A stretch of 64,000 nucleotides of DNA from Escherichia phage MLP3, in the sequence record OK148440; one strand, given 5' to 3'. The notes under the pieces were generated by a model that was not told the origin of the DNA, made no database searches, and saw only the letters and a list, made by a program, of their open reading frames with translations. Positions 22,706 through 53,919 of the stretch are shown one piece after another (within the stretch, counting starts at the first letter, position 1; each line of letters starts with the position of its first letter). A program made the translations under genes and the position numbers.

Positions 22706-23281
22706 TTAGTAAGACACGTCACCACTGGAGTGGGACATGTTGCTCTTGACGAAGTAACAGAACTTGCCAAGACCTTCATTAATTTCTTGAAGCATACTCT
22801 GATCAACTGGATAGGTGCACAAGTCTGAATCAAACTCGTCCATCTTCTCAATGATACACATAAGAGTCATGCACATGTCGGAAAGCATACCGTCCATGTC
22901 GAGATCAGCGTTACCTTCTCGGAACCAAGCGTGACCTAAATAGTTACTAGCAGTGGCATCCACCTTAACACAATGGAAGCGCATACGCTCTGCTATTCGG
23001 TCGCCTGCCTCACGGGCATAATCTTCTAGTTCATCGAACATACCATGAACACCTTGGAAACCAGCTCCAGAGACGTTCCAGTGGTAGTTCTTTGCTTTGA
23101 TGTGTAGAAGTTCAAGGTTAGCCTGCACACCACAAAGAATGTGCTCTAGGCTGTTACTGCTAATCAGTTTATTCATTCCCTCAAGACGAGAGATAGAAGA
23201 ATCAGTAGTAGAGAATGGATTACTAGAACCCACTCTTGTTAGTTCTGGTAAGTCGAAGACATTATTATGCATTAGGTGCAT
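22706..23281 (-). CDS. Dps-like ferritin-fold protein
   Basis: YHWNVSGAGFQGVHGMFDELEDYAREAGDRIAER resembles the Dps signature. Confidence 0.65.
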   Translation of the reverse strand: MHLMHNNVFDLPELTRVGSSNPFSTTDSSISRLEGMNKLISSNSLEHILCGVQANLELLHIKAKNYHWNVSGAGFQGVHGMFDELEDYAREAGDRIAERMRFHCVKVDATASNYLGHAWFREGNADLDMDGMLSDMCMTLMCIIEKMDEFDSDLCTYPVDQSMLQEINEGLGKFCYFVKSNMSHSSGDVSY

Positions 23282-28832: not shown

Positions 28833-29250
28833 CCTTCTCACCTGCCAGATATGCTGTCCAGTCACCAGATTCAACCAGAACATCTTGTTCTTCGTCGATG
28901 TGATAAATCCATGCTTCCACAGTTTCACCGCTATCCAATAATACTGGAATCAGCGTACGCTTGTAAAAGGTGTATGGGTTATCATTACCACGATGACCTT
29001 CTAGACCGTCATACGGACCTTCCAGACCAGCTTGGGTTGTTTCAAAGACTTCTACACGAACAGGCTTACCATTGCTATCATGCTCCAAAGATACACTTGG
29101 GAAGTATGCTGTGCAATACTGATACAGGTTACAGTTGTTGACTGTCCACCCTTCACCAATAGACACACCACCTGCACGAGCGTTGATAGCGTGGTTGTGT
29201 TGACCTTTACGAAGAGAACCATACGTTGCAACTAATACTTTATCAGACAT
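28819..29250 (-). CDS. gamma-glutamyl cyclotransferase-like (GGCT/AIG2 fold)
   Basis: N-terminal VATYGSLRKG; about 140 aa. Confidence 0.6.
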   Translation of the reverse strand: MSDKVLVATYGSLRKGQHNHAINARAGGVSIGEGWTVNNCNLYQYCTAYFPSVSLEHDSNGKPVRVEVFETTQAGLEGPYDGLEGHRGNDNPYTFYKRTLIPVLLDSGETVEAWIYHIDEEQDVLVESGDWTAYLAGEKDDSN

Positions 29251-39262: not shown

Positions 39263-39529
39263 AACTTCTCCTGTTTGTCACATTGATTGGTTAGCCAGTT
39301 GTAAGACCCACTGTTGTTCTTGCTTAACTCGCAAGATGCAAAAGAGTACATCCTGACAAACCCCACAGTGGCTAAGCAAATAAAGATTGCTGCCAATAAG
39401 AATTTAGCTTTCAACTTATTATCCATACAACCTCTTCTTTGAGCTTAAAAAAGGACTCTCCTAAGAGAGCCAAGCTTTAAGGCCAATTAAATAGATATCA
39501 CCCAATATCTGTGGATAACCTGCTCTTAA

Positions 39530-39670
39530 AATATTCTATCCGACGGATGTTCGAGGATTATTCCTCTCCCTAGCATCGGCCCCATACGGGAAAGATTAAA
39601 TTAAGTTTAGGTTAGTTGAGCCAGAATAGCTCACATAGCCCTCTGATACTCACAAGGGCTATAGATGTTA
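39530..39670 (-). repeat. conserved structured noncoding element, copy A (candidate regulatory RNA)
   Basis: about 70 percent identical over about 140 nt to copy at 44800-44957; conserved hairpin AUAGCCC-15 nt-GGGCUAU. Confidence 0.4.
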
Positions 39671-39916
39671 CTCTGTGGCTCCGTCGAATCGGAGGATTGC
39701 TGCTGGAACAGGGTATACTTCCAGATCTTCATCCAGTCGGTATAGATGCCCTGTACTTAAATTTACAGCTGTTACTGGCTTAGAGTGGCCTCCAGCCTGT
39801 ATGGAAGGAACTCTGATAAAGAACTCTTCTGGATATTCAACAGAGTGGAACACACTTCCTGAATAAAGATCTTTTATTTTAGAAGTTTGTTTAGGAGTTT
39901 TATCAGCAATTTTCAT
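39668..39916 (-). CDS. small protein, L.DL.PG.VF paralog family
   Basis: shares MKI...L.DL.PG.VF...NL.TG...V.PV with 41037, 41307, 44955, 45180 genes. Confidence 0.45.
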   Translation of the reverse strand: MKIADKTPKQTSKIKDLYSGSVFHSVEYPEEFFIRVPSIQAGGHSKPVTAVNLSTGHLYRLDEDLEVYPVPAAILRFDGATE

Positions 39917-40149
39917 TACAGACCTTTCTTAGCACGATCTTTGGCAGTTTTGCCAGTGCGGATACGATGGGAAACATTAACCAGCTCGCCACCTTCGACG
40001 ATGGTTACGCTTTTGTTTTTCGCAATATCAAACACAGTTTTCTCTGTGCCGCCCAGACGAATCTGTTTAGGCTCACTGTGGGTCTGAGTTGATTTAGACT
40101 GGAACTGGAACGGCTGACGGATGGCATCAATTGCGCTAACTTTAGACAT
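39916..40149 (-). CDS. hypothetical small protein
   Basis: ATG; TAATG overlap. Confidence 0.4.
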   Translation of the reverse strand: MSKVSAIDAIRQPFQFQSKSTQTHSEPKQIRLGGTEKTVFDIAKNKSVTIVEGGELVNVSHRIRTGKTAKDRAKKGL

Positions 40150-40177
40150 GTTTTTATTACCTTACATTAAAGAGAGA

Positions 40178-40591
40178 TTAAACAACGAATTGGAACGCTT
40201 CGTATCCAAACTTATATAAGAAATCGTGTTTGAACTTCGTTACACGACCACGGTCACGGAAAGATTTCAGACGGTTACTGAACCCAGCCATCGGCTCAGG
40301 GTCAATAGGACTACGAATCTTCATAGCTACAGAGTGCAGCTTGAAGCGCTTACCAGTGCTACATGCCATCATCACATACTCCATACGAGTAGTCCAGATG
40401 TTAAGCACCATACTTGTTTTCTCCGCTGACCAACCAGTCTTGCGGGCGATTTCCTTATGGATGTTAAGCTCCAAAGGAAGTGGGAATTGCTTGTTGAATG
40501 AAGCCGGATAGAGTTTGACCAGAAGATCAATGTTTTCTTTATACGTTAAGTAAGCTAATTTCTTGCTTACGTTGGGGAATTTCCCAGACAT
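40178..40591 (-). CDS. ProQ/FinO-domain-like RNA-binding protein
   Basis: LYPASF...PLPLELNIHKEIARKTGWSAEKTSMVLNIWTTRMEY follows the ProQ N-terminal FinO-domain pattern. Confidence 0.4.
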   Translation of the reverse strand: MSGKFPNVSKKLAYLTYKENIDLLVKLYPASFNKQFPLPLELNIHKEIARKTGWSAEKTSMVLNIWTTRMEYVMMACSTGKRFKLHSVAMKIRSPIDPEPMAGFSNRLKSFRDRGRVTKFKHDFLYKFGYEAFQFVV

Positions 40592-40789
40592 TTTTGAAGC
40601 TCCAAAACAGCGCCGAAAAGAGAGGCGTCATAGTAGCTAAAAGGAGGAGAGAAGAGGGCTTATTTACTTGCCTTTTTCTGTCCGTTAATGTACCAGATAA
40701 CTGAACCGTCAGGCTGTCGTTGACCGAAGCCTTTCAAGTTAACCATTTCTTCTTCAGAGTAGGCACGTTTTCTCACTGATTTTCTCCTG

Positions 40790-41047
40790 TCAGTAGAAGG
40801 TGTGTGTAGAGTCGTCGTTCATAGATAACCAAACGAAGAAGACAATCACACAGAAAGCAATAACACCGAGAATTGCAAGGATTATAGTGTTAGCTAATGT
40901 GATATCTAACACGCTTTGCAGATACATAAAGAACTGTACGACACCACATACCATCAGCACAACCCCAACGACAATGAGGAGCCAATATGTGCAGAGAAGG
41001 ACTGCATCTAATAGTGATACATACTTTGGATGATCTTTATGTCTCAC
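40790..41047 (-). CDS. small multi-pass membrane protein
   Basis: hydrophobic helices; start not verified. Confidence 0.4.
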   Translation of the reverse strand: MRHKDHPKYVSLLDAVLLCTYWLLIVVGVVLMVCGVVQFFMYLQSVLDITLANTIILAILGVIAFCVIVFFVWLSMNDDSTHTFY

Positions 41048-41303
41048 TGATCTTTTCCACTAAATCCAGAGTTGCTGATTCAAATACAACACCAACTACC
41101 ATATTAGGTGCCATATTACGAACGTATCCGCTCTGCATAGACACGGCCCGAGAGTATTCAGAACCGTTAGAACTTTTGTTTACCTTCATGTAAAGGGTTT
41201 GCTCTTTATCTTCTTTCAGAGTAAAGAAAGAGCCGGGAAGAAGCCTCTGAACAGTCAGAGGGATATCTGCAACATGAGTCTTATTGATAGTAAGAACTGT
41301 CAT
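41037..41303 (-). CDS. small protein, L.DL.PG.VF paralog family
   Basis: paralog alignment. Confidence 0.4.
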   Translation of the reverse strand: MTVLTINKTHVADIPLTVQRLLPGSFFTLKEDKEQTLYMKVNKSSNGSEYSRAVSMQSGYVRNMAPNMVVGVVFESATLDLVEKISET

Positions 41304-41306
41304 TGC

Positions 41307-41561
41307 TTATTCCTTAATAGTTGCTTCAGCTTTAATAGGAATAACAGCAACATCTTTACGAGGTGCTGTCGCTCGACCTGTGTTAAGGCAGGCTACAAGT
41401 CTATGCTCGTCCGCACCCTTGATGCAGAGTCGAGTTGAGAACTCAGTAGACAGCAAGATGTACAAATCATCATCTTCACTGTTAGGGTACATGAAGCAAT
41501 CCCCAAGTCGTAAAGCACTGAGAGGTATTGCACTCTTACCTGCTGGTTTATTAACTTTCAT
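41307..41561 (-). CDS. small protein, L.DL.PG.VF paralog family
   Basis: paralog alignment. Confidence 0.4.
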   Translation of the reverse strand: MKVNKPAGKSAIPLSALRLGDCFMYPNSEDDDLYILLSTEFSTRLCIKGADEHRLVACLNTGRATAPRKDVAVIPIKAEATIKE

Positions 41562-44534: not shown

Positions 44535-44799
44535 CCTGACGTTTACGAATGTTAGTTGTCAGACGAAGCATGGCAGACTCAATCTTCAAAGCACCATTTG
44601 CTACTGCATCCATACGTTCAGGACGGTTCATACGTTTGGTTGTCTTTTTCATAATGTTCTCTCTTTATTGATGGAGGCAGGATTGCCAGTTAATATAAAG
44701 GGAAGCCCTACACGTTAAGGCTTCCGCTTGTACAAACTGTCGAGAACTCTCTACCCCTAGAATGTTCTCTATCCCAAACCGATACATACCCCTACATAT

Positions 44800-44957
44800 C
44801 GGAATGCCATTCGAAAATTAACAGGTTTTAGTCTATCACCGGATGTTTGAGACAAGTCTCTCCCTAGCGGTGAGCCATATGGCGTTGAGATTATAGTTAA
44901 TTGAGGAACACCCTCACATAGCCCTCTGATAAACACAAGAGCTATAAGTCGATGTTA
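44800..44957 (-). repeat. conserved structured noncoding element, copy B
   Basis: homologous to 39530-39670; overlaps stop codon of 44955-45179 gene. Confidence 0.4.
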
Positions 44958-46720: not shown

Positions 46721-46777
46721 AGACAAAGACGCTCAAGAAGAGCGTCATAGTAGTTGACCACTGGTACAGAAGAGGGC

Positions 46778-47221
46778 TTACTTAACTCTTGCTGTTTTGA
46801 GTGGGTCAATATATTTTTCAACTCCCCACTTATGTTTACTATCAGCGTAGAAAACATCTGGTGCACATTGGCTAGTAGTAGGAAATGCTTTCGGTGGCTT
46901 AGTGCTACCTTTATTCTTCTGCTTACCTTTAGTGCGACCGTTACAAAAGATTTCTAAACGCTTTTCTTGTTCCGTTTTCGCCGCCCCGTTGATTAACAAG
47001 GAACGCTTGTGATCAGCAAGAAGAAGCGCATCAGCACGATGAACACGACGACCTAGTACCTTTGGTACAGGAGATTCTTTATGTTCTTGAGCGGCCTGTT
47101 TCATAGCCCTGCGTTTAAGGCTACGTTTGCTAATATGGTTAACAGCGGCTGGCTTTTCTTTTTCCAGCTCATTCATAGAGAACACTCGTCCGCCTTTCAT
47201 GCTGATTTTAGATTTAGCCAT
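46778..47221 (-). CDS. basic hypothetical protein
   Basis: ORF only; K/R-rich. Confidence 0.45.
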   Translation of the reverse strand: MAKSKISMKGGRVFSMNELEKEKPAAVNHISKRSLKRRAMKQAAQEHKESPVPKVLGRRVHRADALLLADHKRSLLINGAAKTEQEKRLEIFCNGRTKGKQKNKGSTKPPKAFPTTSQCAPDVFYADSKHKWGVEKYIDPLKTARVK

Positions 47222-52830: not shown

Positions 52831-53919
52831 GGGTAGCAGACCAACGGGATAGATAGATGGGTAAGACGTGCCGCATAGGTTAGCCAATGGGTAAGAAGCC
52901 TAACGAGGAAGGGGAAACGGGTAGGATATAATGTAAGTTAGTTACAGTTAACAGGTCAGACCATGCGGTAATAAATTACCAGTCAATTCGCTACTATCGT
53001 AGCTCATATCAAATTCCTACTCATCAAAGATAAAAGAAAAAGAAAAAAGAAACGCTGAAAAAGAAAAGAATAAAAGAAAGAATAAAAATAATAACTAAAG
53101 TAAACAACTACCAGTCTAAACATACATACATCAATAATCCACTCATGAATAATCACATAAGTTATTACATTCAAACTATGGGGGATGGTCATCAATGGTA
53201 TAGTTTACATAGGTTATCATTAATGTTCTTACTATTAATACCGGTTAGTTATAGTCTTCTATTAGTATGCCTGTACAGTGCTAGCCTTTCATCCCTTCTC
53301 AACATGAGTAAGAGAAATACGGGTAGGAAATCACTGGTTAGATATACATGGGTAAATAATCAATGTGTAATATCAATGGGTAGGTTATTTATGGGTAGGT
53401 ATGCCACTGAACGCAGGTAGGGCAAGGCTTAGAGCTTAAAGGCTGATTGATTTCCTAAAGGCAATTGCATTGGTAATAACCCTTTTTTAAATGAGGACTC
53501 CCCCCTTTTAGGAAACGCGCTCGGAGCGGCTAGGTCCATCCGGTCAAATTGAAATTTTAAACTCTTATATATAAGAATAAGGAACTATTTTATGTGGAAG
53601 ATTAAGTTACTAATTAAGCAATTCAAATGTCAACACGAATACTACCCGATACGGATATCGAGAGGAGATGAACGGTTACACGCTTATTACAAGAGTACAT
53701 GGAGATGTGCAGACTGTGGTAAGGTTAGGAATAGTAAATGGGTGGATAGACCATAGAGAGTATGGGGTGGCCTTAACATGACATGGCCTTAATGGGTAAG
53801 CACTACTTCGTAGTGACGATGCCTTAATGTGGGGTAGCCTTTATGGAGTCCCCTTTACATCAGCGTACACGGGTTAGTACACGGGTGGGCCTTTAGATGA
53901 GTACGCCTTTATGGGTTGA
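52831..53919 (+). repeat. iteron-like array of at least 15 GGGTAGG / ATGGGTARG repeats in divergent intergenic region
   Basis: repeats all in plus orientation; proximal copies extend to GCCTTWATGGGT. Confidence 0.5.
53592..53756 (+). CDS. small zinc-ribbon-like protein (54 aa), below the ORF-track cutoff
   Basis: my translation MWKIKLLIKQFKCQHEYY...CADCGKV; AAGGAA RBS. Confidence 0.35.
   Translation: MWKIKLLIKQFKCQHEYYPIRISRGDERLHAYYKSTWRCADCGKVRNSKWVDRP

Follow-up and report, generated by a model that had tools for sequence, protein, structure and literature searches.

The window, by which we mean the whole 64-kb stretch of DNA analysed here, represents a Suseptimavirus-type coliphage (Gordonclarkvirinae). 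It shares 98.4% identity over 3 kb with vB_EcoP-101114UKE3 and 94% with SU7, and it appears to span the junction of the genome ends. The gene under study, referred to below as the FinO gene, lies in a leftward run of small genes encoding, in order, proteins of 84, 88, 85 (a membrane protein) and 38 aa, the 137-aa FinO-domain protein, and proteins of 77 and 82 aa. The run terminates in a non-coding stretch of approximately 240 nt with an intrinsic terminator that was predicted by a terminator scan, is annotated in SU7 and is conserved in alignment A2. All eight ORFs neighbouring the FinO gene are of unknown function by Pfam and PHROG scanning, so the operon provides no functional clue. The ORFs of 84, 88 and 82 aa (41307..41561, 41037..41303 and 39668..39916, all on the minus strand) look like paralogues and share cross-matches to PHROGs 7832, 7431, 6570 and 12612, whose functions are unknown. 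The features of the locus and the residues discussed below are collected in Table 1.

Table 1. Features of the FinO gene, of its product and of the structured RNA, with the share of the 39 aligned relatives that carry each residue type
Feature	Position	Strand	Description
ProQ/FinO-domain protein CDS	40178..40591	-	Exact ATG-to-stop ORF, 137 aa; stop codon 40178..40180
Shine-Dalgarno GGAG	40600..40603	-	8 nt 5' of the FinO-gene ATG; read from the sequence; an RBS is annotated in SU7 at this place
FinO-domain core	40256..40564	-	Residues ~10-112
C-terminal extension	40181..40255	-	Residues 113-137: amphipathic helix 114-128 and G-Y-E-A-F tail
Tyr72 codon	40376..40378	-	Pocket Tyr; equivalent to ProQ Y70 / RocC Y87; invariant, 39/39
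Arg82 codon	40346..40348	-	Base of the 3'-nucleotide pocket; equivalent to ProQ R80 / RocC R97; invariant, 39/39
Thr67			Pocket Thr; equivalent to ProQ T65 / RocC T82; Thr 19/39, Cys 10, Val 9
Ser55			N-cap Ser of the stem-binding helix; equivalent to ProQ S53 / RocC S70; Ser/Thr 28/39
Asn43			Pocket beta-turn Gly position; equivalent to ProQ G37 / RocC G52; Gly 35/39, Asn 3/39
Ala56			Helix H3 basic position; equivalent to ProQ K54 / RocC K71; Lys/Arg 7/39
Ser60			Helix H3 basic position; equivalent to ProQ R58 / RocC R75; Arg/Lys 8/39
Asn64			Helix H3 basic position; equivalent to ProQ R62; Arg/Lys 15/39
Predicted intrinsic terminator	39454..39471	-	GGCTCTCTTAGGAGAGTC then T-run; closes the transcription unit of the FinO gene
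Structured RNA, copy 1	39523..39670 (full unit ~39440..39670)	-	After the 82-aa ORF
Structured RNA, copy 2	44820..44954 (full unit ~44690..44957)	-
Structured RNA, both copies in phiEco32	22932..23069 and 28900..29030 of record L011

The 137-aa product is identical to UEN68474.1 of Escherichia phage MLP3 (exact-sequence look-up) and is described as a "hypothetical protein" in the GenBank and RefSeq records. The 90%-identity cluster to which it belongs is, however, already named "ProQ/FinO domain-containing protein" in UniProt/UniRef; neither the fold and family nor the domain assignment itself is new. This cluster has 62 members, and those listed come from phage-size sequences of approximately 76 kb. 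PHROG 18901 also matches the protein, with an E value of 4.5e-61. Comparison of the gene with its SU7 and UKE3 orthologues gave 19 to 21 synonymous versus 5 to 6 non-synonymous codon differences, and most of the latter fall in the C-terminal third of the ORF. The ORF is a real gene under purifying selection. Its product is a small, strongly basic protein of 16 kDa with a pI of 10.0 and a net charge of approximately +13 (24 Lys/Arg versus 11 Asp/Glu).

The FinO gene is flanked by homologues of phi32_94/SU10_095 and phi32_93/SU10_094. In phage SU10, CDS 69-125 form the early class (PMC4281155), whose transcription is by the host sigma-70 RNA polymerase (PMC8948821). On sequence grounds, the MLP3 gene is placed in this early cluster transcribed by the host enzyme. 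Only one match to the gp36-type middle/late promoter motif TAATGTATA, with one mismatch, was found near the gene; it lies inside the ORF, and the total for the window is at the level expected by chance. A sigma-70 scan of the window returned fewer sites than were found in shuffled sequences and is hence uninformative. A spacer motif, TAAGCCCTCTTCT...CTACTATGACGC, that runs into a short GC hairpin is repeated at 40610..40660 and 46735..46790 (both on the minus strand), 6 kb apart. The former copy immediately precedes the FinO gene, and UGUUUUGG stands between its hairpin and the RBS; the first part of the motif is also conserved in Kuravirus phages without a FinO gene.

The original prediction of a ProQ/FinO-domain protein was made from residue patterns in the N-terminal part of the ORF and did not give its strand. 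Most of these patterns are present as described (Y28-P29..F32, P39-L40-E41-L42-N43-I44 and S55...L63..W66-T67). The remaining one, G..R..L, can be recognised in G80-K81-R82-F83-K84-L85, but the actual spacing is G.R..L, one residue shorter. Taken alone, the 137-aa protein matches PF04352, the Pfam ProQ/FinO family, over residues 18-87 with an E value of 3.7e-6 and a score of 27.3 bits, just 0.3 bits over the gathering cut-off of 27.0. With the single sequence, phmmer against PDB sequences detected no solved FinO protein and gave only chance mannosidase matches (E of ~1); hence, a family profile was required. A word-indexed homologue search with this protein found nothing beyond its own cluster. 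An exhaustive phmmer search of 1.84 billion representatives produced 45 relatives, 39 of which were aligned and used to build the profile. All 39 match PF04352 (best E, 1.7e-20), and P29, F32, L40, R69, Y72 and R82 are invariant in the alignment. When compared with solved FinO-domain proteins, the profile gave E values of 4e-18 to 4e-7 (4.3e-18 for the ProQ N-terminal domain, 1.9e-14 for RocC, 8.7e-12 for Lpp1663, 2.6e-11 for FinO and 3.8e-7 for NMB1681); it recovers every solved FinO-domain protein and essentially nothing besides. An AlphaFold2 model, for which the 39-sequence alignment served as input, has a mean pLDDT of 93.1 and a pTM of 0.86. In a Foldseek search of the PDB with this model, the top 26 matches were all RocC, NMB1681, Lpp1663 or FinO chains, and the next match had an E value above 0.5. 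The model has the mostly alpha-helical FinO fold with its beta-hairpin, the core comprising helices at residues 10-27, 44-52, 56-68 and 70-79, a beta-hairpin at 81-83/93-95 and a helix at 98-110. As both a profile match well above chance and structural similarity were found, the domain assignment of the original prediction stands.

The product is thus a single-domain, or "minimal", ProQ/FinO-fold protein that consists of a FinO core and one extra C-terminal helix. Full-length ProQ is made up of a FinO domain, a linker and a Tudor-like domain, and a length of 137 aa leaves no room for a linker or a second domain. A Pfam match to the ProQ C-terminal domain was found in none of the 39 relatives, and an NCBIfam scan gave no ProQ match for the 137-aa protein, one relative scoring 22.6 versus the NF003434 equivalog cut-off of 127. 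No second FinO-domain ORF was found within the 64-kb window. The C-terminal extension is common to about half of the phage-type relatives and lies outside the canonical FinO domain; ProQ, RocC and FinO have no counterpart of this helix and tail. Some longer relatives of 227 to 250 aa (P0015, P0016, P0018, P0027 and P0031, including the 7-11/SE131 type) have an extra conserved C-terminal domain of approximately 100 aa with the motif GNHPFRDG...T..VV. This domain has no Pfam match at an E value of ≤0.01 and is not detectably the Tudor-like domain of ProQ.

Residues important for RNA binding were located by mapping the RocC-RNA contacts (PMC9674577) and the results of ProQ mutagenesis (PMC10168233) onto the phage protein via ungapped profile alignments. 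The roles of the Tyr, Arg, N-cap Ser and Thr residues are known for both RocC (PMC9674577) and ProQ (PMC10168233). All four are kept in the phage protein, and we consider that recognition of RNA 3' ends has probably been kept with them. The pocket-turn Gly has been described as nearly or universally conserved, and the G37A mutation in ProQ is deleterious (PMC10168233). In the phage protein this position is occupied by Asn43. Asn tolerates turn conformations, and hence the pocket turn may survive this replacement. The stem-contacting face, as judged from the alignments, appears to be non-canonical, all three basic residues of helix H3, the helix with which ProQ and RocC hold the terminator stem, being replaced. 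In ProQ, R58 is essential, as R58A abolished binding to all seven RNAs tested, while K54 and R62 have a moderate effect (PMC10168233); in RocC, R75D reduced affinity by >100-fold (PMC9674577). The Arg of the stem-binding helix is ∼80% conserved across the ProQ/FinO family, and the importance of the basic residues of this helix is documented (PMC9674577, PMC10168233). With these basic residues missing, recognition of a stem, if there is any, must differ from the canonical mode.

The best profile match among solved proteins is the N-terminal domain of E. coli ProQ (PDB 5nb9), the FinO-domain protein of MLP3's own host, whose Y70 and R80 are kept in the phage protein. RocC of Legionella pneumophila (PDB 7rgt and 7rgu) has Gly52, Lys71 and Arg75 where the phage protein has Asn43, Ala56 and Ser60; its C-terminal region is long, and it serves a single dedicated sRNA, RocR. 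NMB1681 of Neisseria meningitidis (PDB 3mw6) is a minimal ProQ and a global RNA binder. It is, however, chromosomal, whereas the MLP3 protein is phage-borne, has a different C-terminal helix and tail, is without the helix H3 basic residues and is only distantly related, as seen from the profile E value given above. FinO of the F plasmid (PDB 1dvo) and FopA of pCol1B9 act with the dedicated antisense RNAs FinP and Inc, respectively, and control conjugation or replication (PMC9977716). MLP3, in contrast, is a lytic phage, and no cognate RNA partner was identified for its protein. Distant homologues with 31 to 41% identity form a phage-type clade and occur in Salmonella 7-11-like phages (7-11 G0X555 and SE131 gp136), Erwinia phiEa21-4-like phages (gp085), Aeromonas LAh phages (LAh_8 gp040) and Shewanella phages (KASIA p031); a few of these are annotated as "proQ: RNA chaperone" or "FinO-like protein". 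The SE131 gene is likewise found among leftward-transcribed non-structural genes, but the 7-11/SE131 gp136 protein has 234 aa and the extra C-terminal domain, unlike the 137-aa MLP3 protein.

The distribution of the gene is narrower than that of its surroundings: orthologues with >90% identity were detected by tblastn in 21 records and approximately 32 Escherichia or Salmonella records match the protein, while the neighbouring DNA is matched by approximately 100 related records. The gene is, from these sequence comparisons, an accessory gene with a patchy distribution, present in Suseptimavirus and 7-11-like phages and not in phiEco32. A profile search of every ORF in the complete phiEco32 genome found no FinO domain (best E, 0.14). 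In phiEco32, SU10, LAMP and Paul the same two flanking genes are separated by approximately 106 nt, and this Kuravirus spacer still aligns to the opening ∼25 nt of the FinO ORF, with the GGGAATTCCC palindrome among the retained positions. This similarity hints that the gene may have been lost from the Kuravirus lineage by deletion. The interval between the 38-aa gene and copy 1 of the structured RNA (39668..40660, compared with records L003, L005, L006 and L007) is a hot spot of gene gain and loss, which contains the FinO gene and genes for 77 and 82 aa in MLP3, genes for 77, 154 and 71 aa in phiEco32, genes for 77 and 154 aa in SU10, and the 77-aa gene only in LAMP.

The most unusual feature of the region is a structured RNA that is present in two copies and is conserved across Gordonclarkvirinae and Grimontviridae, in 101 phage records. 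The stop codon of the upstream ORF marks the start of each copy, and an intrinsic terminator is found 60 to 95 nt further on; the terminators of the two units lie at 39454..39471 and 44701..44725. The RNA has four helices with many compensatory changes, and its shared features are a hairpin, TATAGCyCT/AGGGCTAT, and a stem, with an inner hairpin, around two conserved loops, GCTAGGGAGAG and CrAACATCCG. In an alignment of 12 sequences that had been fitted to the model, pairing is seen in 97.2% of cells, and both sides have changed in 10 of the 30 pairs; sliding the partners by 1 to 3 columns as a control reduced pairing to 37-44%. The second phiEco32 copy, which was not in the seed, was recovered by a nine-sequence covariance model with 69 bits and an E value of 2e-13. 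No Rfam family matched in either the gathering or the E-value mode. It may function as an RNA derived from a 3'UTR, as a processing site or as a put-like antitermination RNA. The nucleotide identity of the non-coding stretch after the 82-aa ORF to Grimontviridae Salmonella phages is 70-76%, whereas their FinO-domain homologue is only ∼30% identical. A weak covariance-model match upstream of the SE131 FinO gene (E of 0.21) was rejected, as it is a plain long hairpin and not the structured RNA. The 3' part of copy 1 contains a perfect DnaA-box sequence, TTATCCACA, within GGTTATCCACA (39510..39518, minus strand), which is invariant in all eight aligned phages. This site overlaps AGGTTA, which is predicted to pair with TAACCT as the 3' arm of a long-range stem, and hence it may be a feature of the RNA and not a site for DnaA.

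Among bacterial sRNA chaperones, FinO-domain proteins make up the third major class; to our knowledge, they have been studied only where they are encoded on chromosomes and plasmids. The existence of phage-encoded FinO-domain genes is mentioned in reviews. However, in the literature that we searched, including the SU7 genome paper, there was no characterised phage FinO/ProQ protein and no report of RNA binding for this protein or for any phage homologue. RNA binding is a property of all characterised FinO domains (PMC9977716). By analogy, the 137-aa protein may bind RNA, may do so through the 3' end and may influence RNA stability, and it could function as an RNA chaperone. Our preferred interpretation, to which we would give a probability of roughly 0.55, is that this protein is expressed early, binds RNA 3' ends via the Tyr/Arg pocket and protects or matches terminated RNAs. 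The Tyr72/Arg82 pocket would receive the last nucleotide at the 3' end of a terminated RNA, together with its U-tail, and docked RNAs would be shielded from 3' decay or polyadenylation, or helped to pair, with this action taking place in the first minutes of infection. A role at RNA 3' ends is favoured by the FinO fold, the invariant Tyr72 and Arg82, the retention of Ser55 and Thr67, the basic charge and the position in the early cluster. It is weakened by the Ala56, Ser60, Asn64 and Asn43 replacements, by the marginal Pfam score and by the lack of any solved FinO protein among the single-sequence phmmer matches.

A narrower role, which we regard as distinctly unlikely, is that of a dedicated matchmaker, comparable to FinO with FinP or FopA with Inc, that stabilises the two-copy structured RNA or promotes its pairing or action. 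The covariation described above indicates that this RNA is real, copy 1 ends the transcription unit of the FinO gene with a canonical terminator, and Suseptimavirus and 7-11-like phages carry both the RNA and a FinO-domain gene. The original prediction had indeed put forward nearby conserved structured elements as possible ligands. This suggestion was correct in that a conserved structured RNA exists, but the distribution of the RNA does not track that of the gene. Most of the 101 records with the RNA give no match to the 137-aa protein; phiEco32 has two copies of the RNA and no FinO ORF in its genome, and tblastn indicates that most Kuravirus records likewise have the RNA without the gene. 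Conversely, Erwinia M7, Aeromonas LAh_8 and Shewanella KASIA have the gene but no structured RNA within 6 kb on either side of it. An RNA that starts at a stop codon and ends in a terminator would, by analogy, be an example of the generic type of structure bound by FinO domains, a requirement that any terminated RNA would satisfy equally well. As the two distributions do not coincide, the structured RNA was rejected as a dedicated ligand and is a possible, rather than a specific, partner; a co-occurring cognate RNA, as in a FinO/FinP-type pair, was not found for the 137-aa protein. We consider it very unlikely that a FinO domain with a re-wired RNA face, its pocket retained and its helix H3 basic residues lost, acts together with the two-copy structured RNA of these C3-morphotype podophages. 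Such a protein could, for example, cap and stabilise the terminator-ended RNAs that lie close to stop codons, or could influence whether transcription terminates or reads through where early units end. If this were true, it would represent a circuit of a phage-encoded RNA chaperone and a non-coding RNA that acts over early gene expression.

It is also possible, though on balance unlikely, that the protein is directed against the host, competing with host ProQ or sequestering the 3' ends of host sRNAs and mRNAs, with the outcome that host post-transcriptional control is rewired or an RNA-dependent defence is neutralised. E. coli has a large ProQ regulon, the FinO gene is found in a variable early cluster, and a patchy accessory distribution is typical of host-interaction genes. 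However, PADLOC and NCBIfam give no match to a defence or counter-defence system, and a protein whose stem-binding face has diverged would not be expected simply to mimic the ligand range of ProQ. The loss of the equivalents of ProQ G37, K54, R58 and R62 may also be read as a sign that the FinO fold has been re-purposed for a non-canonical function, either as a protein adaptor acting via the C-terminal helix and G.PAF tail or as a DNA binder. Such a change of function, which we think quite improbable, would be consistent with the clade-specific and confidently modelled C-terminal extension and with the further domain, itself lacking a Pfam match, in some relatives. The invariance of Tyr72 and Arg82 in all 39 relatives would, however, be difficult to account for if the 3'-end pocket were not conserved, and the strongly basic character of the protein and the RNA-binding activity of every characterised FinO domain (PMC9977716) also argue against this explanation.

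The interest of the locus lies in the combination of lost canonical stem-contact residues with a neighbouring uncharacterised RNA family. A minimal FinO-domain protein encoded by a lytic phage and acting early in infection of E. coli would lend itself well to asking whether phages have their own 3'-end-binding chaperone that guards their transcripts or interferes with the host ProQ regulon, and how a FinO domain binds RNA without stem contacts of the K54/R58/R62 type.

Some minor observations concern the genes and repeats found elsewhere. In SE131 (L004, 1929..6178), in Erwinia M7 (L013, 3200..6462) and in record L012 (205..1518), the FinO gene adjoins a gene for ribose-phosphate pyrophosphokinase (Prs), and in SE131 and Erwinia M7 a gene for nicotinamide phosphoribosyltransferase (NAMPT), an enzyme of NAD salvage, is also adjacent; MLP3 has no such neighbours. 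A gene for a "tail fiber protein" of approximately 215 aa comes after the FinO gene in SE131 and Aeromonas LAh_8, but not in MLP3. Within the MLP3 window, the long non-coding region that separates the divergent early and late clusters contains, at 53030..53091 and 53770..53914 (plus strand), A-rich repeats together with a 26-nt unit, GCCTTAATG...GCCTTTATGG, that is present three times. This non-coding region is probably the genome-end or early-promoter region.
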